A stretch of 24,654 nucleotides of DNA, from positions 1 to 24,654 of IMG/VR virus record IMGVR_UViG_3300045988_113752. One strand, 5' to 3'. The notes under the pieces were generated by a model, which saw only the letters and a list, made by a program, of their open reading frames with translations, had not been told where the DNA came from and did not search any database. Within the stretch, counting starts at the first letter, position 1, and every line of letters begins with the position of its first letter. This document shows positions 2,543 through 24,654 of the stretch, one piece after another. Origin of the DNA: a virus (taxonomy: Duplodnaviria > Heunggongvirae > Uroviricota > Caudoviricetes). The position numbers and the translations under genes are program-made.

Positions 2543-3147
2543 TGGCCTCTGTAGTAGAGATCTGCAATCGTGCGCTGTCCAATATTGGCAATAGCCGCAG
2601 CATTAACAGCCTGACGGAAGCCAGCAAGGAAGCGGGGGAATGTTCGCTGCACTTTGAGGCCTGCCGTGATGCTGTGCTTTCTGATTTTGACTGGAACTTT
2701 GCTACCAAACGCGTGGCGCTTGCAGATACGAACAATCCACCGCCTGACTGGGAATATGCGTACCAGTACCCGTCCGATTGTCTGCGCATTACTGAAATTA
2801 TGCTTCCTGGTGTACGCAATCCAACAGCAGCAATGCGCGTTCAGTACGAAGTTGGTGCAGACACCAACGGAACAGGAAAGTTGATCTACACAGACCAGCC
2901 GCAGGCATGGCTCAAGTATGTATCTCGCGTTACAGATGTGAACATGTTTGATGCCATTTTTATGGAGGCGTTGGCCTGGCGTCTTGCGGCAGCTATTAAC
3001 ATGGCGCTGACTGGGAATGCAGACCTCGGTACGTTTGCCCTCAATATGTACAATCGCGTGATTCTTAGTGCTGGCTCGCATAGCCAGAATGAATCACAGG
3101 AACCACTGCCACCGGTTGACGAGTTTACCATTGCGAGGTTGTCCTGA
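2542..3147 (+). CDS. Tail tubular protein A-like (gp11-like adaptor), putative
   Basis: 201 aa; start overlaps the previous stop (TAATG). Immediately precedes a large gp12-like gene. Size and position match T7-type tail tubular protein A. Confidence 0.45.
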   Translation: MASVVEICNRALSNIGNSRSINSLTEASKEAGECSLHFEACRDAVLSDFDWNFATKRVALADTNNPPPDWEYAYQYPSDCLRITEIMLPGVRNPTAAMRVQYEVGADTNGTGKLIYTDQPQAWLKYVSRVTDVNMFDAIFMEALAWRLAAAINMALTGNADLGTFALNMYNRVILSAGSHSQNESQEPLPPVDEFTIARLS

Positions 3148-5618
3148 TGGCTATCAGTTGGATCCAGCCCAGCTTTGCCGGTGGTGAGATTGGACCGTCG
3201 TTGTACGGTCGTATCGACATGGCGAAGTACCAGGTGGCATTGCGCAAGTGCGATAACTTTATCGTGCGGCAGTATGGCGGCGTTGAGAATCGACCTGGTA
3301 CGCGTTTTGTCGGTGCCGCCAAATACCCAAATCGGAAATGCCGCCTGATCCCGTTCCAGTTCTCGACGGTTCAGACTTATGCTCTGGAGTTCGGACACCA
3401 GTACATGCGCGTTATCAAAGATGGTGCGTTGGTGCTGAACAGCAGCAATGTTATTTATGAAATTGCCACGCCATATACTGAAGCCGATCTGTTCCGAATT
3501 AAATTCACGCAAAGCGCCGACGTGCTTACGCTGGTTCACCCGGCATACCCGCCGAAAGAGTTGCGTCGCTATGCGCATGACAACTGGCAACTGGTTGATG
3601 TGGTAACGAAGAACGGGCCATTTGAAGATATCAATATTGACGAGTCAGTGACGGTTTATGCCAGCGCCAGCACCGGGACAATTACGTTAACGGCAAGCGC
3701 CTCTATTTTTGGCGCGGAGCAGGTAGGCAAATTGTTCTATCTGGAACAGCCAGCAGTGGATTCAGTGCCGGTATGGGAAACCAGTAAGAGTACGTCGATT
3801 GGCGATATTCGCCGTGCAGACAGTAACTACTATCGCGCCGTTACAGCAGGCAAAACTGGTACTTTGCGCCCTTCGCATACAGAAGGCACATCATGGGATG
3901 GCTGGGGCGGATCCGGTGATGATGATACTGGCATTGAGTGGGAGTATCTGCACAGTGGGTTTGGCATTGCCCGTATCACTGCTGTAAACGGCACTACTGC
4001 AACTGCCGAGGTGATTTCCTATATCCCTTCGCAGGTCGTTGGCGAGGATAATGCCAGCTATAAATGGGCTAAATATGCCTGGAACAGTGTTAATGGTTAT
4101 CCTGGCACTGTTGTTTATTATCAACAACGTCTTTACTTCGCCGCATCGACTGCGTTTCCTCAGACTATCTGGGCCAGCCGTACCGGGGATTATAAGGATT
4201 TTGGCAAAAGCAATCCTACGCAGGATAACGACAGAATTATCTACACCTATGCCGGGCGTCAGGTTAATGAGATCCGCCACCTGATTGATGTCGGTTCGCT
4301 GGTGGCACTGACTTCCGGAGGTGAGTACGTCATCACCGGCGACCAGAACAAAGTGTTAACCCCATCATCATTTGCATTCAGCTCTCAGGGATCAAATGGC
4401 TCGAGCAATGTCCCACCAATTGCCGTGGCGAATATTGCTCTGTTCGTCCAGGAGAAAGGCAGTGTTGTCCGTGATCTGGCCTACTCATTCGATGTTGACG
4501 GCTATCAGGGGAACGACCTGACCATCCTTGCCAATCATCTTTTTCAGAAGCACAGCATTGTTGACTGGTGCTTCTCTATTGTCCCTTACTCCAGCGCCTT
4601 CTGCATTCGTGATGACGGTAAATTACTGGTGATGACCTATTTGCGTGATCAGCAGGTTTTTGCATGGGCACCACAATCCAGTACCGGAAAATATGAAAGC
4701 ACATGCAGTATCAGCGAAGGAAATGAAGATGCGGTGTATTTCGTCGTTAACCGAACCGTTAACGGGCAAACAGTGAGATACATCGAGCGACTGTCCAGCC
4801 GTTTATTTACCAGCGATGAAGATGCTTTCTTTGTTGATTCTGGCCTTAGCTATGATGGAAGAAATACGTCTGACAGAACGATGACCATCACTGGTGGTTC
4901 TGGCGAATGGGATTATCGCGCGGAATATACAATCAGTGTTTCTGGTGGTGCGTACTTCACCAGTAGTGATGTCGGCGCGCAACTACAGTTCCCTTATGTC
5001 GGAACTGATCCTGATACTGGCGATGAAGTGTCAAAAGAATTACGTTGCGACATTATTTCTGTAACCAGCAATACCGCTGTAGTGGTTCGCGCTAACAGGA
5101 ACGTCCCGCCATCCCTCAGGAATGTGGCCACCACGAACTGGCAGATGGCGCGCCGGACATTTGGAGGCCTGTCTCATCTTGAAGGCCAGACCGTAAACAT
5201 TCTCTCTGATGCGAACGTGGAGCCACAGAAAGTGGTTTCCGGAGGTGCCGTCACGCTGGAATCACCGGGAGCTGTTGTGCACATCGGCCTGCCAATAACT
5301 GCTGAATTCGAAACACTGGATATCAACATTAACGGACAGGAAACGCTGCTGGACAAAAAACAGGTGATCCCGTCCGTTACTCTGGTTGTGAATGCCAGTC
5401 GCGGCATCTGGGCGACTACGCCCGGCGGTAAATGGTACGAATATCCACAGCGTGAATTCGAGTTCTACGATGATCCTGTTGATGATGCTACCGGAAAAGT
5501 AGAAGTGAAACTGGACAGTAACTGGGGCAAAAACGGACGTGTAAAAATCCGTCAGCTTGATCCGTTGCCGCTGTCTGTTCTTGCCGTTATTCCTCGCCTT
5601 ACTGTTGGGGGATTCTGA
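3147..5618 (+). CDS. Tail tubular protein B-like (gp12-like nozzle), putative
   Basis: 823 aa; start overlaps the previous stop (TGATG). The N-terminal pattern (GGEIGPSLYGRID...RKCDNF...RPGTRF) resembles the T7 gp12 family as I recall it. Size matches. Confidence 0.55.
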   Translation: MAISWIQPSFAGGEIGPSLYGRIDMAKYQVALRKCDNFIVRQYGGVENRPGTRFVGAAKYPNRKCRLIPFQFSTVQTYALEFGHQYMRVIKDGALVLNSSNVIYEIATPYTEADLFRIKFTQSADVLTLVHPAYPPKELRRYAHDNWQLVDVVTKNGPFEDINIDESVTVYASASTGTITLTASASIFGAEQVGKLFYLEQPAVDSVPVWETSKSTSIGDIRRADSNYYRAVTAGKTGTLRPSHTEGTSWDGWGGSGDDDTGIEWEYLHSGFGIARITAVNGTTATAEVISYIPSQVVGEDNASYKWAKYAWNSVNGYPGTVVYYQQRLYFAASTAFPQTIWASRTGDYKDFGKSNPTQDNDRIIYTYAGRQVNEIRHLIDVGSLVALTSGGEYVITGDQNKVLTPSSFAFSSQGSNGSSNVPPIAVANIALFVQEKGSVVRDLAYSFDVDGYQGNDLTILANHLFQKHSIVDWCFSIVPYSSAFCIRDDGKLLVMTYLRDQQVFAWAPQSSTGKYESTCSISEGNEDAVYFVVNRTVNGQTVRYIERLSSRLFTSDEDAFFVDSGLSYDGRNTSDRTMTITGGSGEWDYRAEYTISVSGGAYFTSSDVGAQLQFPYVGTDPDTGDEVSKELRCDIISVTSNTAVVVRANRNVPPSLRNVATTNWQMARRTFGGLSHLEGQTVNILSDANVEPQKVVSGGAVTLESPGAVVHIGLPITAEFETLDININGQETLLDKKQVIPSVTLVVNASRGIWATTPGGKWYEYPQREFEFYDDPVDDATGKVEVKLDSNWGKNGRVKIRQLDPLPLSVLAVIPRLTVGGF

Positions 5619-13023: not shown

Positions 13024-13455
13024 CTATTCAGGTATTTCAATTCCAAAACCATCTGCATCCCATGAGTTTTCACAGATGATGTAACCTAGTTCATTGAGCT
13101 TATTAAATGTTTTTTCAAAGATGATCTGGTAATCATTATCTGCAAGTGATTCCAGTTCAAGGTCATTAAGGTTTATATAAAAACTTGTATGTCCAAGTGT
13201 TATTTTCTTATTAATTTCATTAAAGGTTCTTTTGAAAATAATATTTGATATTTCATGTCGTGCATTGTTTGCAATGATTTTTGCTTCATAAGCAGAAATT
13301 ACGTCATCTTCATGAATATCTTTCAGAAAACTGGTGTCAAGACGTTGTACTATTTCAGCGTTCATTGATCGCTTATTGGCTTTTGCAGAAATTTCTATTT
13401 TTTCTTTTACTTCGACGGGAAGTCTGATCCTTAGTTGTGGATCTTCTCTGCTCAT
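13024..13455 (-). CDS. Mnt-like ribbon-helix-helix repressor with ~100-aa C-terminal extension
   Basis: N-terminus MSREDPQLRIRLPVEVKEKIEISAKANKRSMNAEIVQRL resembles P22 Mnt/Arc RHH domains as I recall them. Transcribed divergently from the Arc-like gene. Start chosen at the ATG giving MSRED; the track ORF starts 10 codons upstream. Confidence 0.55.
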   Translation of the reverse strand: MSREDPQLRIRLPVEVKEKIEISAKANKRSMNAEIVQRLDTSFLKDIHEDDVISAYEAKIIANNARHEISNIIFKRTFNEINKKITLGHTSFYINLNDLELESLADNDYQIIFEKTFNKLNELGYIICENSWDADGFGIEIPE

Positions 13456-13575
13456 GTTCTTCACCAAATATTGAGTTACTTGCAATGATTGAAGTATGCC
13501 TCACCGTGTGCTTGACATCAATGACGCACGGTGTGACAATTATTTTGCCCCACGGTGGGGCTAAGGAGATATGAA
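13456..13575. promoter_or_regulatory. Divergent promoter/operator region between the Mnt-like and Arc-like genes
   Basis: TTGACA at 13512-13517 with a weak -10 (gacaat) 17 nt downstream on the plus strand. Inverted half-sites CACCGTG (13502-13508) and CACGGTG (13527-13533) flank the -35; a third CACGGTG lies at 13551-13557. Confidence 0.45.
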
Positions 13576-13743: not shown

Positions 13744-13814
13744 AACAGCGAAGCCCCACGGTGGCCAGACCGTCAGGGCTTCAGTATCGTAAAACTACGT
13801 ATAGGAATTAACGA
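13742..13814 (-). ncRNA. Candidate sar-like antisense RNA covering the antirepressor RBS/start
   Basis: Minus-strand promoter TTGATA-N17-TATACT (plus coordinates 13849-13844 and 13826-13821) fires antisense across the ant RBS (13802-13805) and ATG (13816). A strong hairpin (13750-13782) is followed on the minus strand by GCUGUUUUA. Predicted length is ~70 nt. Confidence 0.4.
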
Positions 13815-13815
13815 C

Positions 13816-14754
13816 ATGACGAGTATAGCAACAGCAGTATCTACTATCAACGTGCCATTCCACGGCGCAGAGCTTTATGTTGTCAATCACAACGGCGAAC
13901 CGTATACCCCAATGAAACCTATCGTTGAGGGAATGGGGCTAGACTGGAAATCTCAACATAAGAAGATTTCTCAACGCTTCTCGAAGGGTATGGTGGAAAT
14001 CACCATACCTTCTGCCGGTGGGGTGCAAGCCATGATTTGTATGGCTTTACGAAAATTGGCAGCTTGGTTGAACAGCATCAGCCCTAACAAAGTCCGCCCT
14101 GAAATCCGCGACAAGGTAATCCAGTATCAGGAAGAGTGTGACGATGTGCTCTACGAGTACTGGACTAAAGGCCATGTGGTTAACCCACGCAAAGCTAAAA
14201 AGGCGTTGCCGGGTAAAATAACAACTGAACAGCAGGAAGCCATTAAACAACTCGTCATGAGTCGCGGTCAGTCTCTGCCAAAAGAAAAACAGGCTAAGGC
14301 GATGATCACCATGTGGTCGTCACTGAAATCTCATTTTGGCTGTTCGTACAAAGAAATTGGTGAAGATCAATTTGCCGAAGCGTTGTCTCTTGTTGCTCGG
14401 GTTCCGCTTGAAGGGGAGTATCTCCCTGCTGGATCTGCATCAGAGAATGATGAAGTGGCAGTCAAGATGTTAGATGCGCTTCGTGAGGCAATTAAAACAC
14501 AGACAAAATGTTATGGTTATCCACTGAAGCCCGGCTACCGTAGCCTGATTCATTCGCCGTCTGGTGTTCTCGGCCTGACGGAGAACTCACTGCTGATGAA
14601 TCTGCTGAACCAGTTACAGGAAGACGGGCACGATGTATCGGGCGCGGCGGCGGAGCTGACCACCATGTTCTGCTACATCGTCGGTGTGAGCAAATGCCTG
14701 CGTGATATCCAGACGCACGCGGAATACATCAACGACAAGGCAGGGTTCTTCTGA
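13816..14754 (+). CDS. Antirepressor-like protein (Ant-type N-terminal region plus shared C-terminal domain)
   Basis: 312 aa immediately downstream of the Arc-like gene, in the immI-like arrangement. The C-terminal ~78 aa are identical to the C-terminus of the Bro-N protein at 16006..16698. Confidence 0.55.
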   Translation: MTSIATAVSTINVPFHGAELYVVNHNGEPYTPMKPIVEGMGLDWKSQHKKISQRFSKGMVEITIPSAGGVQAMICMALRKLAAWLNSISPNKVRPEIRDKVIQYQEECDDVLYEYWTKGHVVNPRKAKKALPGKITTEQQEAIKQLVMSRGQSLPKEKQAKAMITMWSSLKSHFGCSYKEIGEDQFAEALSLVARVPLEGEYLPAGSASENDEVAVKMLDALREAIKTQTKCYGYPLKPGYRSLIHSPSGVLGLTENSLLMNLLNQLQEDGHDVSGAAAELTTMFCYIVGVSKCLRDIQTHAEYINDKAGFF

Positions 14755-15987: not shown

Positions 15988-16240
15988 TCCCTGTGCCGCC
16001 GCCCGTCAGAAGAACCCTGCTTTGTCGTTGATGTACTCCGCGTGCGTCTGGATATCACGCAGGCATTTGCTCACACCGACGATGTAGCAGAACATGGTGG
16101 TCAACTCCGCCGCCGCGCCCGATACGTCGTGCCCGTCTTCCTGTAACTGGTTTAGCAGATTCATCAGCAGTGAGTTCTCCGTCAGGCCGAGAACACCAGA
16201 CGGCGAATGAATCAGGCTGCGGTAGCCGGGCTTCAGTGGG
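15988..16240. repeat. Inverted repeat, right copy (partner of 14521..14774)
   Basis: Reverse complement matches the left copy at ~97%. It encodes the C-terminal 78 aa of the Bro-N antirepressor. Confidence 0.8.
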
Positions 16241-16698
16241 GCGCTGTAGGTTTTGTTCTCTACCTTCATTGCCTGCATCACTGCTGATGCTGTGGCGTTG
16301 GCTACCTGGTCGGCAACCATCTTTATGCGTTCTTCCTGCGGGAGCGAGTTTTTAATGTAACTTCCGGTGCGGCGGATCTGAGGAAGAACCTCACCTGTAA
16401 CCCATTCAAGAAATCTGAATGCTCTCGTTCCCTCAGTCATTGCCTCTTTGCAACGCAGAATAAGGATGTAGAGACCTGATTCTGAAACGATGGATAGTTC
16501 TTGTATTCCACCAGGGGTCTGTATTGAATACAGCCCCTTTTTGTTCCAGCCTTTTTTATCAAGTTTTCTCGCTTGTGTAACATCAATATTCAAAGCATTG
16601 CACACATCTTTGGTGACAAACCAAGGTTCTCCGTCAATCATGAACATACGGATCTGGCAGGATGACTCAAAGGAAAAGATGGAAGGTTTGGTATTCAT
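16006..16698 (-). CDS. Bro-N domain antirepressor with shared C-terminal domain
   Basis: Start chosen at ATG 16698 (AAGGTGA 5 nt upstream), giving MNTKPSIFSFESSCQIRMFMIDGEPWFVTKDVCNALNI, a Bro-N/antirepressor N-terminal signature. The C-terminus is identical to the Ant at 13816..14754. Confidence 0.65.
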   Translation of the reverse strand: MNTKPSIFSFESSCQIRMFMIDGEPWFVTKDVCNALNIDVTQARKLDKKGWNKKGLYSIQTPGGIQELSIVSESGLYILILRCKEAMTEGTRAFRFLEWVTGEVLPQIRRTGSYIKNSLPQEERIKMVADQVANATASAVMQAMKVENKTYSAPLKPGYRSLIHSPSGVLGLTENSLLMNLLNQLQEDGHDVSGAAAELTTMFCYIVGVSKCLRDIQTHAEYINDKAGFF

Positions 16699-17011
16699 AG
16701 CGATCACCTTTGTAGTTAGGTTAATCACCACCGCTGAGACCAATCAGATGGTGGTGAACTGTGCAGAGTTGGTCTTACCGGCTACAAAGGAACCCGGCGC
16801 ACCTTTCGGTGCCCCCACACAGCCCACCATAGAATAGGTGCGCTTTACACATAAAAAAACCGCTTATGCGGCATATGTGCCTCTGTAGTAATCCGGGAGA
16901 CCAATCCCGGCACTGGATTTTGCCAGTGCCCGATTACTATGGCACAAGAGGAGTGCAATGTAAATTTACCGAAAAGGTAAATATAAGCACTCCTATTGGT
17001 AATTTCAAAAC

Positions 17012-17465: not shown

Positions 17466-19766
17466 ATGACGGTCTCAACCGAAGTTGACCACAACGAATA
17501 CACAGGTAACGGCGTTACGACATCATTTCCGTATACCTTCCGTATTTTCAAAAAATCCGACCTGGTTGTTCAGGTGTCTGACCTTAACGGTAACGTTACA
17601 AAACTAGTGCTGGATGCTGGTTATACGGTAACAGGGGCGGGAACTTATAGTGGCGGTGCAGTGGTTCTTCCGTCGCCGCTTGCTGCTGGCTGGCGAATCA
17701 CGATAGAGCGTGTGCTTGATGTGGTGCAGGAGACTGATCTTCGCAATCAGGGAAAATTTTTCCCCGAAGTTCATGAGGATGCATTTGACTACCTGACGAT
17801 GCTGATCCAGCGATGTTTTGGGTGGTTCAGACGTGCATTGATGAAACCATCTTTGCTTGCAAAATATTACGATGCAAAGCAAAACAGAATATCTAACCTT
17901 GCCGATCCATCACTTGAGCAGGACGCTGTAAATAATCGCTCAATGCGTAATTATGTCGATGCTGCAATCGCCGGAGTTATTGGTGGTTTTGGTTGGTTTA
18001 TTCAGTATGGTTCTGGAGCAGTATACCGAACGTTCCAGGATAAGATGAGAGACACCGTTAGTGTTCGCGATTTTGGGGCAAAAGGCGATGGTATAACAGA
18101 TGATACATCTGCATTGATTCTGGCTGCAGAATATGCACGAGAATCATCCAGAACATTACGAGCGGAAGGTAATTTTATTATTACGGAGACATTAAATCTT
18201 CGTAATGTCAGCCTCGAAATGACCAATGCTGTTTTTACCATATCCCACTCAGGGATAGGGGTATTGCTTGGCGGGAATGCATCAAACCCTAACAACCCAA
18301 GACAAAACTTCGGAACGATTATCAGAAATTCTGGTATTTCATCTGAAACGACACCGGATATTCGTATTATCGGGGCAAAAGGGCAGCATATTAACATTGA
18401 GCGTTGCGACTACTTACAGTTATATGCAAACTCTGATGATTCAGTATATGAAACAGATTATTCTATAGCCTACTCAACCTTTAACCTGAAAAAGGTCGAT
18501 ACAATTCATTTTCTTGGTGTAGTTAGAGGTTGGATAAACGAAAACAAGTTTTACCTAAACAGGACAAATAATGTGATTATTGCTGATAATCCGTATTCAC
18601 ATAATCACAACAAGTTTTTTGGTGGAACGATGGAGAATACTGGGGTTATTGACATTCAGCGTGGTAATAATAATCATTTTTACGGACTCCGTTTTGAGCG
18701 CAGACCAGACAACCCAGATGACACACAAAGAATTAATTTTGGTAGTTATACGTGGAATAATTCTGTTCAGGCATCATGGCTTAGCTTTTCTGCATATACC
18801 AATGAACCATATAACCCAAACAATCTTGTAACTGTCACTGATAATGGTAATGGAAATGCTGTATATCATATTCAGGAAGAACTAACTAATGAAGTGTCGC
18901 TTTTTTCAGTGAGTGAGAAAACGCCATTTTTATCAAGCGTTAATATGGGAAGTTCAGATACACCTGATTATGTTACAGATGTAAAAAGTGTGCGAAATTT
19001 AATTCATCTTGTTAATGGTAGTTTTGCTATTGGACGTAACTTCAGGACAATTTGGGAATCAGGTGATATAAGCGTCAGGAATGGCGATGTGTTTGCATTT
19101 ACTTCTGATGTCAGCGCATTCCGCATAAGGGTTTATGGAATTGATGAGAATGGCAGTGTTATTACAAATGAGCCTGAAGGGATTGGTTTTCCAGGGGCTT
19201 CATGGGATGATGAAAACAGTCGTTTTACTACCCAGTCTAACATCGGTAATGCAAAGTTTAGGATAACCGACAAAGGAGGAGTAAAATCAATAAGGGTTGT
19301 CATTCTGTCGGGTGGTAATACATCTGGAATTACCTTCAAATATATCAGATTTACCGGAAGATATTATAAGGATAGTTCTGCGTATCCTCGAAGAAATATG
19401 GATGATCATAATATCCACAGGTCTGGTGCTGTGATGTTTAATTCATCACTTGATGTCAAAATGGAAAATATAGCATCAGGTGTTACCTGTTATGTAAAAG
19501 ATGCATCTGATGTTAAGGTTAATATATTAAGAAATAGATACGTTGTTAAATCGGTGTCCGGGAATACTATATATGTGCGTAACCAGGATGAAATTTCATA
19601 TTCTGGTCCTTATGATGACTTTAAGGTTGCATATACTAGCGGGGCAAAAAATATGATTTCTGATGTTTCAGGAATTTCATCTAATGCAATAAAGTTATCA
19701 GGTAGTGTTCCTTCTGAAATATCAGAAGGAAGCAATATTGATTTGATTAAAATATTAACGAAGTAG
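17466..19766 (+). CDS. Tailspike protein: gp17-like N-terminal anchor plus pectate-lyase-type beta-helix depolymerase domain
   Basis: 766 aa with GGAG RBS. The N-terminal ~150 aa follow the pattern of T7 gp17-type tail fibre N-termini. The central DFGAKGDGITDDTSAL is the hallmark of pectate-lyase-fold tailspikes. The C-terminal half is AT-rich. Confidence 0.8.
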   Translation: MTVSTEVDHNEYTGNGVTTSFPYTFRIFKKSDLVVQVSDLNGNVTKLVLDAGYTVTGAGTYSGGAVVLPSPLAAGWRITIERVLDVVQETDLRNQGKFFPEVHEDAFDYLTMLIQRCFGWFRRALMKPSLLAKYYDAKQNRISNLADPSLEQDAVNNRSMRNYVDAAIAGVIGGFGWFIQYGSGAVYRTFQDKMRDTVSVRDFGAKGDGITDDTSALILAAEYARESSRTLRAEGNFIITETLNLRNVSLEMTNAVFTISHSGIGVLLGGNASNPNNPRQNFGTIIRNSGISSETTPDIRIIGAKGQHINIERCDYLQLYANSDDSVYETDYSIAYSTFNLKKVDTIHFLGVVRGWINENKFYLNRTNNVIIADNPYSHNHNKFFGGTMENTGVIDIQRGNNNHFYGLRFERRPDNPDDTQRINFGSYTWNNSVQASWLSFSAYTNEPYNPNNLVTVTDNGNGNAVYHIQEELTNEVSLFSVSEKTPFLSSVNMGSSDTPDYVTDVKSVRNLIHLVNGSFAIGRNFRTIWESGDISVRNGDVFAFTSDVSAFRIRVYGIDENGSVITNEPEGIGFPGASWDDENSRFTTQSNIGNAKFRITDKGGVKSIRVVILSGGNTSGITFKYIRFTGRYYKDSSAYPRRNMDDHNIHRSGAVMFNSSLDVKMENIASGVTCYVKDASDVKVNILRNRYVVKSVSGNTIYVRNQDEISYSGPYDDFKVAYTSGAKNMISDVSGISSNAIKLSGSVPSEISEGSNIDLIKILTK

Positions 19767-19776
19767 GATTAAATGC

Positions 19777-20091
19777 ATGGAATATAGAACCGGACATTTT
19801 ATTGCAATGGATATAACACCTTTCCTTCATGCGCTTTGTGCTGTGGCCGCACAGATACTGATTGGCCTTTTTACCGGAAACTGGGCTTACGGAGCGATAG
19901 CTGGTTGTACGTTCTTCATTGCGCGTGAACACACCCAGGCAGAATATCGCTGGATTGAAATGTTCGGGCATGGCAAGCGTATGAATATGCCGTGGTGGGG
20001 CGGTTTTGATCCGCGCGTATGGGATGTTGGAAGCCTGTTTGACTTTGTTGTTCCTGTTACTGTTTGTTTTGGTGTTTATTTCTATATTTGA
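19777..20091 (+). CDS. Small hydrophobic membrane protein (hypothetical)
   Basis: 104 aa with aggat 8 nt upstream, starting 11 nt after the tailspike stop. Two to three predicted TM segments and a Trp-rich motif (MPWWGGFDPRVWD). Confidence 0.5.
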   Translation: MEYRTGHFIAMDITPFLHALCAVAAQILIGLFTGNWAYGAIAGCTFFIAREHTQAEYRWIEMFGHGKRMNMPWWGGFDPRVWDVGSLFDFVVPVTVCFGVYFYI

Positions 20092-20313
20092 CTGCTACCG
20101 CGCCATCAAATGGCGCGGAATTCAACTAAGCCTCTATATTTTAAATCATTTCTGTACTGCAATCTCTTCAGAGTTATGTAAAAGGCAAGCCTTATTATCG
20201 ACATGAAAGGAAGGGGATTGACAATGCATGGGTAACAAAAAACCATAAATGGTTTATCATGCGTAATGCCTTTACTATTCAGGAGGTAGTTATGCATATA
20301 AACGGTGGAAAAC

Positions 20314-20718
20314 ATGTCAGCTCAACTAACCAGTGAAACTTTAAATCAGTGGCTTAGCATGAGTTCTCTGGCGGCGGTGATAGCAGGAGTTCCTCCTGAG
20401 GTTGCTTTGGGGGCTTTGGCTGGGGCGGTAATTTTTGTTACCTCTGCGGTAGAGTATCCTATTCGTCGTCGTGTACTCTTGTCGATGCTTAGCTTTCTCT
20501 GCGGCCTTCTTTTTTATAAACCAGCAGCATCAATTCTTATCGGCATAGCCAGCCTGATCCCTACCATCACGCAGGACTCTTTTGAAAAAGGGATTGTTTT
20601 CTCAGCTGGCGCATTCGTGTCAGCAATTGTTGCTGTGCGTATTGGTATATGGCTCTATCACCGTTCCGATAATCCACGCGAGTTAATTCCGGGGAGAAAA
20701 GACGATGGTAACGCATGA
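20314..20718 (+). CDS. Multi-TM membrane protein, first gene of lysis cassette (holin/antiholin candidate)
   Basis: Four hydrophobic segments. The track ORF starts at GTG 20305; ATG 20314 is preferred. Its end overlaps the start of the next membrane-protein gene. Confidence 0.45.
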   Translation: MSAQLTSETLNQWLSMSSLAAVIAGVPPEVALGALAGAVIFVTSAVEYPIRRRVLLSMLSFLCGLLFYKPAASILIGIASLIPTITQDSFEKGIVFSAGAFVSAIVAVRIGIWLYHRSDNPRELIPGRKDDGNA

Positions 20719-21013: not shown

Positions 21014-21632
21014 ACAATTCCAGCGAGCTGCTGGTATTAGCGAGGCGCTGGCCGCTCGCTGGTTCTCGCATATAACTTCTGCGATGAAAGAGTTTGGTAT
21101 CAGCAAGGCAGAAGATCAGGCAATGTTTATTGCTCAAGTTGGGCATGAGTCTGGGGGGTTCACCAGGTTGCAGGAGAATTTCAACTACAGCGTTACCGGA
21201 CTGGTGAGCTTTGTCCGGACTGGACGCCTCACCCAGGGACAGGCTAATGCACTGGGGCGCCGCGTTGGTGAACCACCATTGCCACTTGAGCGCCAGCGCG
21301 CGATCGCAAATCTGGTATACAGCAAACGCATGGGTAACAATGCTCCCGGCGATGGCTGGAATTACCGTGGGCGCGGGCTTATCCAGATTACCGGTTTGAA
21401 TAACTATCGTGACTGCGGAAACGGTCTGAAAGTTGACCTGCTGGAGAATCCTGAACTGCTGGCACAGGACGAATACGCGGCTCGTAGCGCGGCCTGGTTC
21501 TTCTCCAGCAAAGGCTGCATGAAGTATACCGGAGATATTGTACGTGTAACTCTGATTATCAATGGTGGCAGGAACGGCATCGACGACCGGCGCGCGCGAT
21601 ACATCACTGCCAGTAAGGTGCTGGCGGTATGA
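21003..21632 (+). CDS. Endolysin, glycoside hydrolase family 19 (chitinase-like lysozyme)
   Basis: Internal ATG of track ORF 20772..21632. [12 protein letters not shown] and [16 protein letters not shown] match the GH19 catalytic signature regions. Confidence 0.8.
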
Positions 21633-22111
21633 TCTGGGCATTCGCAAAAGCATACTGGAAACAGTTGGTTATCATGGCGATGCTTGCTGTTCTGGTCATA
21701 TCAGGAGTTGTCGCCTGGAATGCACACGGCAGTCGCCAGTACGATGCCGGGTATGCTCAGGCGGAAGAAGACCGCAAAGCCGAAGAAGACAAAGTTCGTC
21801 AGCACTACGAACAGGAGAAATCGATCAATGAACGTGAAGCGCAGCAGAGGATCGACCAGGCGCGCAATGATGCTCTTGATGCTGCCGCTCGCGCTGGCCG
21901 GTTGCAGCAACAGCTCGTTGCCATCCGTGAGCAGCTCAGGCACTATAACGCCATTGTCGGCGCTGGGACGTCAGCCGCAGACACCGGAGTTTTGCTTGCC
22001 GACGTGCTCAGTAAATCTCTCGAGAGAAACAGACAACTGGCAGAGTATGCTGACCGGGCAGCCGAAGCCGGAAGAGTCTGTGAAAAACAGTACGACACCC
22101 TGACCAGATAG
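21629..22111 (+). CDS. Rz-like i-spanin
   Basis: Start overlaps the endolysin stop (ATGA). N-terminal TM helix followed by a charged, coiled-coil-like periplasmic domain. Confidence 0.7.
21828..22103 (+). CDS. Rz1-like o-spanin lipoprotein, embedded in Rz in the +1 frame
   Basis: [26 protein letters not shown] has a basic n-region, hydrophobic core and LAGC lipobox. GGAG lies 10 nt upstream. The mature part is Pro/Ser-rich. Confidence 0.6.
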   Translation: MNVKRSRGSTRRAMMLLMLPLALAGCSNSSLPSVSSSGTITPLSALGRQPQTPEFCLPTCSVNLSRETDNWQSMLTGQPKPEESVKNSTTP

Positions 22112-22218
22112 CATGGCATTTTTCATGGTACTGATTTCCGGTGACGGTATATAAAACGGTACGAGGAAAATTGAGCTTTGGAAAAATGTTATCACTCAAT
22201 TGGTTATGGTGTCCGTAA

Positions 22219-22236
22219 ATAATTGAGTGGGAATGA
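22219..22236 (+). other. guaA: Remnant 3' end of guaA (ATA ATT GAG TGG GAA TGA = IIEWE-stop): probable prophage att junction
   Basis: E. coli GuaA ends ...PPATIEWE as I recall it. Here only the last codons are present and the frame is closed by TAA two codons upstream, so the upstream DNA is not guaA. A host-like terminator follows. Confidence 0.45.
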
Positions 22237-22262
22237 TTTTGATCCCTGCACTATGAATGAAC

Positions 22263-22292
22263 AAAACCCTCTGTTACTACAGAGGGTTTTTT
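22263..22292. terminator. Bidirectional intrinsic terminator (AAAA-CCCTCTG-ttacta-CAGAGGG-TTTTTT)
   Basis: Perfect 7-bp stem flanked by an A-run and a T-run, between convergent genes. Confidence 0.7.
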
Positions 22293-22330
22293 ATCTTCAA
22301 GAATTATAGGCTTGAAGTTACTTACATCGA

Positions 22331-22870
22331 TTAATTAAACCAGCTGTCCGATTTGTTCTCTTCTGCTTTGCCCACGCTTTTCATCAGATCGCGACCGCCT
22401 TCAGTCATATTTCTGTTGGCGTCAGCTTCAGATTGCACCACATCGGTTTGCGCAGCTTTGTGCTTCAGTTCCTGATCGATAAATTCGTTTTCTCGCTTAA
22501 CGCGGGCTTCTTCTTTTGCCAGCGCCAGTTTTTGTTTCTGAATCTCTAAGCTGTGTAGCTCATCTTCATAACTTTGATCGCGTTTTTTGTCCGCAGAGGC
22601 TTCGGCGTCCAGTTTATCCTGACGAGCTTTCTTATTTGCTGCTGCCGTTGCCGCTCTTTTGTTAGCGGCGGCCTGGGCATTTGCGCGACGTTGCTTCTCT
22701 TGCTGGATTTCCCTGTTGCGCTCCGCGACCCATTCGTCATGCTGCCTTTGCTCTTCATTTTTACCTTGCTGTTCAGCTTCTGCTACAGCAGAGAGTTGAT
22801 CCTGCAATGATGAGGCGATAGCCGGATAGCTTAAGGAGGCCAAGATGGCGCAAAGAAAAACTTTCTTCAT
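22331..22870 (-). CDS. yfgI: Periplasmic coiled-coil protein, YfgI-like (host gene)
   Basis: 179 aa with signal peptide MKKVFLCAILASLSYPAIA, then a highly charged Gln/Ala/Lys/Glu-rich sequence. Length and neighbourhood match E. coli yfgI as recalled. Confidence 0.5.
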   Translation of the reverse strand: MKKVFLCAILASLSYPAIASSLQDQLSAVAEAEQQGKNEEQRQHDEWVAERNREIQQEKQRRANAQAAANKRAATAAANKKARQDKLDAEASADKKRDQSYEDELHSLEIQKQKLALAKEEARVKRENEFIDQELKHKAAQTDVVQSEADANRNMTEGGRDLMKSVGKAEENKSDSWFN

Positions 22871-22885
22871 GACTCCTCCTGATTA

Positions 22886-23404
22886 TTAGCTCTTTTCAGG
22901 ACATTTAGTATTTGGCTGAATACGCGTTTCGTTATACGTTGTGGTAATAACAACGGCTAAACCTGTCGTAAACTGGCACTCTTTACCCACCTGGGTAGAG
23001 GTATACACTTTGGTGCCTTCCTTATATGTTAAAGAAACACCTTCCACTAAGGTTTTATCATTCACCATAGAACCCGCTGCCGCGCCTACAGCTCCGCCGC
23101 CAACTGCCCCTGCCGTCGTTCCGGAATTGCTGCCAGAACCGACGTTGTGGCCGATAACACCGCCAGCGACTGCGCCAATAAGCGCGCCGAAGGCTTGTGC
23201 GTTCCGTTTATTTTGGGAGTTGTCTACGGCAACTTTTGCGGGAAGAATGGAAATAATATTAACGGTTTTAGTTTCTTGTTTGGTATTCAGTTGATCGGTT
23301 TGATAAACATCGGCGGCATGATCGTCAGCATTTGACTGGCATCCTGCCAGAGTGAATGACGCTAACATTGCCACAGGCAGAAGACATTTTTTAAATTTCA
23401 TCAC
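22886..23404 (-). CDS. yfgH: Outer-membrane lipoprotein with glycine-zipper region, YfgH-like (host gene)
   Basis: 172 aa with LAGC lipobox and a Gly/Ala-rich segment (GALIGAVAGGVIGHNVG...GAVGGGAVGAAAG), similar in architecture to SlyB/Pcp-type lipoproteins. Confidence 0.5.
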   Translation of the reverse strand: MMKFKKCLLPVAMLASFTLAGCQSNADDHAADVYQTDQLNTKQETKTVNIISILPAKVAVDNSQNKRNAQAFGALIGAVAGGVIGHNVGSGSNSGTTAGAVGGGAVGAAAGSMVNDKTLVEGVSLTYKEGTKVYTSTQVGKECQFTTGLAVVITTTYNETRIQPNTKCPEKS

Positions 23405-23714
23405 TATTCCTTGTTATACACATTACGAAAAATAAGACATTTAAGATCATCAAAAGAGGAAAGTAAATGTATTGCGTATAAAGGGATAGATTAAATTTAT
23501 TAAAATTCACGCAGGGAATAATTTATAAAAATATATCATTACAACATATATATTAATTTTATATTTATTTCGCAGCCAAACAGGATAAACATCAGTCAGG
23601 ACAAAGACGTAAAATTTAAGATGAAAGAATATCTGCCGCTTTGATAATTCCAAAGAGCAAAAGCATCCGACAGCGAAGTGCCGTTAGGTTCTGTGAAAGT
23701 GGAGAAGGTAACCG

Positions 23715-23906
23715 CTAACGTTGTACCGGTGATTCGACGGAGAGTGTGGATTGCTGAGCTTCTTTTTTGCTCTGATGGTGCTGCCAGGCACCGACGGACG
23801 AGTAGATAAAACGGCCAAAGAAGAAGATAAAGCTGATGAGCAGTACGATACGGGTCATGCGACTGTTAAATCGGTGTCGTTTTCGCATACTGGTTGCCTG
23901 ACTCAC
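23715..23906 (-). CDS. yfgG: Small single-TM membrane protein, YfgG-like (host gene)
   Basis: 63 aa with a basic N-terminus and one hydrophobic helix (IVLLISFIFFFGRFIY). Size and position match yfgG. Confidence 0.45.
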   Translation of the reverse strand: MSQATSMRKRHRFNSRMTRIVLLISFIFFFGRFIYSSVGAWQHHQSKKEAQQSTLSVESPVQR

Positions 23907-24257
23907 AAAAGGTTCCTTGAAGTATGTCCCACGCTGTGGACGGTACTTACATTAAGGCACAACAGGACAAAATGGTCAATTCTTCGTTATGTAAAAAAGC
24001 GTCAGTGGATACATATTTTAATGTTATGGAAGTTAATTTAATTATTTACAATGATGATGTAATAATGATGAATTAACATGATAAACGTAATAATTCATTA
24101 ATCAGGGTTATTTTGTTTGATATATATCAATTGGAACTTTCATATGACACTTAGAATCAATGCTCTCTATAGTGATGAATAATCATCATTCGAAGTCAGG
24201 TGGGATGCCTGTCTGAATACACCTCCTTCAGGATGTGGGGGATTCTGCTGAGCATCT

Positions 24258-24654
24258 ATGAAACTGAATGCAACTTATATAAAAATACGTGATAAATGGT
24301 GGGGGCTTCCGCTGTTCCTGCCTTCTTTAATCTTGCCCATTTTCGCCCACATTAATACTTTCGCGCATATTTCTTCCGGTGAGGTTTTTCTCTTTTATCT
24401 GCCTTTGGCACTGATGATCAGCATGATGATGTTTTTCAGCTGGGCGGCATTGCCAGGGATCACCTTAGGGATTTTTGTCCGCAAATATGCAGAGCTGGGT
24501 TTTTACGAAACGCTCTCATTAACGGCTAATTTTATTATCATTATCATTCTCTGTTGGGGCGGTTACAGGGTCTTTACTGGATTTGCCCCTATATTTCCAG
24601 ACATCTGTTATCACTTAACCCATTACAAGCCCGCTGCCGCAGATATTCCCGTGG
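24258..24654 (+). CDS. pdeF: N-terminal fragment of a multi-TM membrane protein, probably the sensor domain of PdeF/YfgF (continues past window end)
   Basis: Open frame from ATG 24258 to the window end (132 codons) with several hydrophobic segments. Not in the ORF track because it has no stop. Assignment rests on synteny recalled from E. coli. Confidence 0.4.
   Translation, partial: MKLNATYIKIRDKWWGLPLFLPSLILPIFAHINTFAHISSGEVFLFYLPLALMISMMMFFSWAALPGITLGIFVRKYAELGFYETLSLTANFIIIIILCWGGYRVFTGFAPIFPDICYHLTHYKPAAADIPV

Follow-up and report, generated by a model that had tools for sequence, protein, structure and literature searches.

A phage lysis cassette and a run of bacterial genes meet near the end of the DNA analysed here, a stretch of 24,654 nucleotides from a virus of the Caudoviricetes (IMG/VR record IMGVR_UViG_3300045988_113752), which we refer to as the window. 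The question raised by this locus is what kind of junction joins the two. The initial annotation of positions 22112..22292 had taken it for an attR-type junction, of the sort formed when a phage integrates into guaA at its 3' end. Our analysis upholds this reading, as the left flank is the P arm known from phiV10 and epsilon15, and the right flank is the guaA–yfgI region of both K-12 and a prophage-free strain. We are close to certain that 22112..22292 is the attR (P-O-B') of a Uetakevirus-type prophage, i.e., a podovirus like epsilon15, phiV10 and TL-2011b, inserted by its tyrosine integrase at the 3' end of Escherichia coli guaA.

Reading the junction to the base

The last gene of the prophage's lysis cassette encodes an Rz-type i-spanin (21629..22111, + strand; Pfam DUF2514, E = 7.4e-43) and is syntenic with the Rz genes of epsilon15 and phiV10. 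Embedded in it, in another frame, is a gene for an Rz1-type o-spanin (21828..22103, + strand), with the lipobox LALAGC and a match to PHROG 11621, 'Rz-like spanin' (E = 3.3e-40). Rz ends at 22111, directly before the junction region, which had rightly been placed just after Rz/Rz1. From 22112 to 22221 (+ strand) extends the P arm of attR, a phage-derived and non-coding segment that aligns with the Rz-to-core part of attP in both phiV10 and epsilon15; at the empty host site, the 17-mer core alone matches and nothing corresponds to the arm. The attachment-site core, ATTGAGTGGGAATGATT, follows at 22222..22238 (+ strand), a single match with 0 expected by chance, and is made up of the last four codons of guaA and the stop codon (22222..22236), plus two extra bases. 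Next comes the host B' arm (22239..22330, + strand), identified as the guaA–yfgI intergenic region by its match to strain 5444 and to the reconstructed empty site, both described below. In other words, the right boundary of the prophage can be set to the base, with phage DNA up to and including 22221, the core at 22222..22238, and host DNA from 22239 onwards.

The guaA-like end had first been recognized from the string ATAATTGAGTGGGAATGA, read as the codons for IIEWE and a stop and matched to the C-terminus of GuaA. By exact string count, this string occurs once in the window (22219..22236, + strand; chance expectation 0), starting 108 bases past the end of Rz, and its translation is indeed I-I-E-W-E-stop. 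The C-terminus of E. coli GuaA, however, is ...KPPATIEWE*, so that the match stands for the IEWE-stop encoded at 22222..22236 and fails for the first isoleucine: the ATA at 22219..22221 is derived from the phage, and the host has ACC at this place. The true guaA part in the window amounts to ATT GAG TGG GAA TGA (22222..22236) and nothing more. Because GuaA ends in TIEWE and not in IIEWE, identity to the host begins at 22222, and not at 22219 as had been predicted. The in-frame TAA that had been said to close the guaA-like frame can be read directly from the sequence at 22216..22218 (+ strand), as the codon just before ATAATTGAGTGGGAATGA; it is borne by the phage, and it shows that the guaA-like end in the window is a non-coding remnant. 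This end is a duplicated core, rather than a damaged gene.

On the host side, the first gene past the junction is yfgI (22331..22870, − strand), assigned by Pfam (DUF5384, E = 6e-61) and by the annotation of near-identical genomes. It is followed by yfgH (22886..23404, − strand), yfgG (23715..23906, − strand) and the 5' end of pdeF, comprising its first 107 codons (24258..24578, + strand). The annotation of near-identical genomes and Pfam together bear out all four of these genes, whose names had initially been proposed from the sequence. The last 76 bases of the window (24579..24654) are the outer part of an IS2 element, inserted in pdeF after codon 107, and pdeF, which encodes a c-di-GMP phosphodiesterase, is thereby disrupted. 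The identical pdeF::IS2 junction is found in just 6 of 5426 complete E. coli genomes.

Between the core and yfgI, a terminator scan identified the guaA/yfgI intrinsic terminator hairpin of the host at 22263..22290, with the sequence AAAACCCTCTGT-TACT-ACAGAGGGTTTT, then TT. A G+C-rich stem of 12 pairs leads into a stretch of T residues, which qualifies the hairpin as an intrinsic terminator, and its fold energy is -19.4 kcal/mol on the + strand (z -5.6) and -18.7 kcal/mol on the − strand (z -5.5), where the tail, UUUUGUU, is weaker. In the empty site, the terminator lies 27 nt past the guaA stop codon, and it is found in the same place in K-12. It had been described as a host-type bidirectional terminator; bidirectional activity is plausible only, given the weaker tail on the − strand. 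A promoter scan detected no promoter-like sites in 21600..22900. Scans for Rfam families and tRNAs gave no match at the junction, and no tRNA was found anywhere in the window; the site is therefore not a tRNA-type att site.

Comparison with phage attachment sites and empty host sites

We compared the junction with both of its presumed parents in a four-way alignment of the window, the 3' end of K-12 guaA, and the attP regions of epsilon15 and phiV10. The window tracks the phage P arm rather than the host left of 22222, and the host rather than the phage right of 22238/22239. The only sequence common to all four is the core of 17–18 bp, with epsilon15 and the host sharing one extra T. The core is identical in the attB of K-12 and strain 5444, in the attP of phiV10 and epsilon15, and in the attL and attR of E. 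coli MSB1_8B, a related lysogen. When the window was searched against phage genomes with BLAST, similarity to EC.W1-9, phiv142-3, phiV10, epsilon15 and further phages spanned the holin–endolysin–Rz cassette and stopped at 22238/22239. Position 22239 is a T in the window and in the host, and an A in phiV10-type attP, which is consistent with an exchange inside the 17 bp.

The use of guaA by epsilon15-like phages, which had been suggested in the initial annotation, is documented in the literature. The sequence attgagtgggaatgatt is the published attP/attB core of phage vB_EcoP_ZX5, located at the 3' end of guaA, and was confirmed there when attB, attL and attR were amplified by PCR and Sanger-sequenced, which showed integration and excision of this phage at the site; the attP of phiV10 and that of epsilon15 are stated to be this core as well (PMC9782041). 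The published core has one exact match in the window, at 22222..22238, and is identical to the core found here. Moreover, the 3' flank of guaA is given as the target for integrases of the epsilon15 cluster (PMC8138268). The integration of epsilon15 itself into guaA is attributed to Kropinski et al. 2007, as cited in these two papers (PMC8138268, PMC9782041), and is also given in the GenBank annotation. The guaA attR is thus already published, and the junction in the window is a textbook-type att junction, real but ordinary, whose relevance beyond correct annotation is slight.

For the host side of the argument, we made use of strain 5444, a carrier of the pdeF::IS2 insertion in which guaA lies directly beside yfgI, i.e., in which attB is empty. 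Positions 22222..24654 of the window (2433 bp) align with this strain at 99.84% identity, with 4 mismatches and 0 gaps, and the alignment starts at the first base of the core. Within the 1.2 kb left of the core, the 17-mer matches strain 5444 and nothing else does. Alignment to a prophage-free strain had been suggested as a check on the initial reading, and its outcome is a right flank collinear with strain 5444 from the first core base. The comparison is effectively one with a 'cured strain', and this near-isogenic strain with an empty site offers a ready reference for designing PCR primers for attB, attL and attR. The six genomes with pdeF::IS2 are absent from the best matches to the prophage, and the one inspected (5444) is prophage-free at guaA. 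No genome in the E. coli collection spans the whole window, the best reaching 89% coverage at 98% identity.

We also reconstructed the empty site by joining the K-12 guaA end to positions 22222..22330 of the window. This reconstructed site is found with 100% identity over 182 bp in many prophage-free genomes. Among the 5426 complete E. coli genomes, the guaA–yfgI empty site is contiguous in 4463 and the Rz–yfgI junction is present in 360; the element in the window is a guaA-integrating Uetakevirus, and about 7% of these genomes have one of its kind at the site. Directly right of the core, the window has TTTTGATCCC where K-12 has TTTGACCC. We considered imprecise recombination as the source of this difference and dropped it, since many empty sites have the window's variant; because the reconstructed empty site is 100% identical in many genomes, the difference is, going by the sequences compared, an ordinary host polymorphism and not a recombination scar. 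In contigs from IMG/VR, several B' variants adjoin the same P arm. A scan of IMG/VR showed the core to be present in at least 119 viral contigs, and when the flanks were sorted, P-O-B', B-O-P' and P-O-P' arrangements were all present among the contigs bearing it.

Integration, the far end and alternative explanations

Strand exchange within the 17-bp core common to attP and attB would insert the phage into the chromosome. The phage's own, identical copy of the core lies about 190 bp upstream of int, and at the int-side junction guaA would be followed by the core and then by the P' arm, its reading frame staying full; such an attL would read guaA ...ACCATTGAGTGGGAATGATT, then the P' arm (AACAGCTAACTC..., a terminator, and GGTGACGGTAT / ATACCGTCA). 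The second copy of the core ends up some 40 kb away behind Rz/Rz1, as a remnant that codes for nothing; the original terminator of guaA and then yfgI come after it, and it is this second copy that the window shows. In the lambda convention, the int-side junction is called attL (B-O-P'); by the same convention, the arrangement of sequences in the window makes its junction an attR (P-O-B').

By analogy with arm-binding tyrosine integrases of the lambda and P4 type, strand exchange in the core is probably helped by arm-type sites. A candidate for such an integrase site in the P arm is GTGACGGTAT (22141..22150, + strand), the sole exact copy in the window. The P' arms of phiV10 and epsilon15 contain one direct and one inverted copy of this motif, and in the epsilon15 record it is annotated as an 'integrase' protein_bind feature, a prediction of the depositors. 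With regard to IHF, the consensus WATCAANNNNTTR gave 23 matches in the window when 1 mismatch was allowed, against 31 expected, i.e., no enrichment. Three IHF-like matches do cluster in the P arm (22190..22228), but this is no evidence for binding sites, considering that the window-wide count is not above chance. The sole basis for sites of accessory factors is the set of predictions by the depositors of the epsilon15 record.

An integrase and an intact guaA had been predicted for the far end of the prophage, outside the window, and this layout exists in the related lysogen MSB1_8B. In this genome, the order is guaB, full-length guaA (ending in ATIEWE*), core, P' arm and a tyrosine integrase gene, whose product is 88% identical to epsilon15 Int; at the other side, it is Rz, P arm, core, guaA terminator and yfgI. 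A complete phiV10-like prophage of about 41 kb lies between its attL and attR. For the prophage in the window itself, whose integrase, excisionase candidate, attL and guaA lie beyond the window and were accessible in relatives only, we infer an intact integrase and attL, and a continued ability to excise.

The P' arm contains a terminator as well, AACCCTCTGT-TTTT-ACAGAGGGTTTTT, located 46 nt past the core (locus L004, 4995..5018; L003, 4998..5027; L005, about 3140..3170). The guaA terminator of E. coli lies 26–28 nt past the core, and the 10-nt stem arms AACCCTCTGT / ACAGAGGGTT are identical in the two. A P' arm terminator with the same stem is also present in the Salmonella phage epsilon15. 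Other host flanks that adjoin the same P arm and core (IMG/VR loci L013, L030, L044, L045 and L068) have an unrelated terminator, AGCCCGCG...TGCGGGC / AGCCCGCG...TGCGGGCTTTTTT, and are taken to be from hosts other than E. coli. We tentatively suggest, as a possibility that we consider somewhat less likely than not, that the P' arm terminator and the core may represent a cassette captured from E. coli, made up of the 3' end of guaA and its terminator. After integration, the phage copy of the terminator would end guaA at attL and the host copy would end the lysis operon at attR, so that equivalent terminators would have been swapped. Such a terminator capture, if true, would suggest that the ancestor of this entire group of phages lived in an E. 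coli-like host.

Alternatively, the junction could be a fossil of past integration that no longer functions as an attR, left by a defective prophage, for instance one in which int/xis or attL have been lost or broken. Prophage decay is common, the other end of this prophage lies outside the window, and IS elements and pseudogenes occur in some of the related prophages at the guaA site. Against this, all of the window's large late genes have uninterrupted, full-length reading frames (ORFs of 823, 930, 1004 and 766 aa) and the lysis cassette is complete, the core and the P arm, including the arm-type site, are unaltered compared to active phages, and close phage relatives that share the core can be induced (PMC9782041). 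We therefore regard a fossil junction as improbable, though worth bearing in mind. Considerably less probable is that a different guaA-targeting element, such as an island like CMGI-3/GIsul2 or an unrelated prophage, possesses an integrase of the epsilon15 cluster and has acquired a Uetakevirus lysis cassette by recombination. The guaA 3' flank is targeted by other elements too (PMC8138268, and a paper on GIsul2), and about 960 of the 5426 E. coli genomes are without a contiguous guaA–yfgI empty site, compared to only 360 with the Rz–yfgI junction. Because of this discrepancy, other elements must occupy the guaA att site in several hundred E. coli genomes. In the window, however, all 22 kb left of the junction form a collinear Uetakevirus late region, running from the major capsid gene to the tailspike to lysis, and the complete prophage of MSB1_8B is enclosed by its attL and attR; this makes a different element very unlikely.

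The least credible explanation, whose probability we consider negligible, is a chance resemblance, or a fragment of a guaA pseudogene that arose by deletion or duplication without site-specific recombination. Only five GuaA-like codons are present, and a stop upstream closes them, which is all that speaks for it; on the other hand, the 17-mer has a chance expectation of 0 in the window, the same 17-mer stands beside the integrase gene in free phage genomes, and identity to the host starts at the very first base of the published core and runs on for 2.4 kb. The coincidence with the phage core and this 2.4-kb collinearity refute such a chance match or pseudogene fragment, and we rejected it in favor of an attR formed by integration at guaA.

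The prophage and its place among known systems

As a late region of the Uetakevirus type, the prophage part of the window has genes for the major head protein, tail and internal virion proteins, the tailspike and the lysis cassette. Three RNAs score above the Rfam gathering score, all on the − strand: sar RNA (13747..13814), C4 antisense RNA (16747..16834) and isrK (16853..16929). Antirepressor-type genes lie next to them at 13816..14754 (P22_AR_N) and 16006..16743 (BRO-N), and an Arc-like repressor gene is located nearby at 13024..13485. Because the RNAs adjoin antirepressor-type genes and an Arc-like repressor gene, the prophage seems to carry two antirepressor modules controlled by antisense RNA. 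Between the tailspike gene (17466..19766) and the first holin-like gene (20305..20718), the only ORF in the interval 19767..20304 is one of 104 aa (19777..20091), which has no Pfam match. An O-antigen-modifying gene is absent from this interval, which is the position of oac in phiV10 and of the serotype-conversion genes in epsilon15.

Among sequenced phage records, TL-2011b (NC_019445.1) is the closest to the prophage part of the window (coverage 82%, identity 97.4%). Its attR is the same, and it differs in that its record was excised from a chromosome and extends into host genes for about 3.5 kb beyond attR. Positions 41268..44784 of NC_019445.1 (locus L126) are host DNA, comprising yfgI, yfgH, yfgG and the start of pdeF. 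In this record, the yfgH homologue is labelled 'DNA methyltransferase', a database artefact that can mislead annotation. With lysogens of phiV10, vB_EcoP_ZX5 and phiv142-3, the window has in common the core ATTGAGTGGGAATGATT, the P arm with GTGACGGTAT, the location directly after Rz/Rz1, and the host flank, consisting of the guaA terminator and yfgI. In comparison to these lysogens, its prophage has another tailspike and another immI-like accessory region, and it is without an O-acetyltransferase gene between tailspike and holin; these differences leave the junction unaffected. Epsilon15 has the same core plus one T, which brings the sequence shared with attB to 18 bp, and the same attP layout (Rz, P arm, core, terminator, int), but DNA identity over the lysis and att region amounts to about 82%, and its host is Salmonella.

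More broadly, phages and islands of the P4, P22 and HK022 type insert at the 3' end of tRNA or protein genes and bring a replacement for it: their core covers the last part of a conserved gene, which remains intact at attL through the identical 3' end that the phage provides. The junction described here shares this principle, with the distinction that the target is the protein-coding gene guaA, of which 15 coding bases are duplicated.
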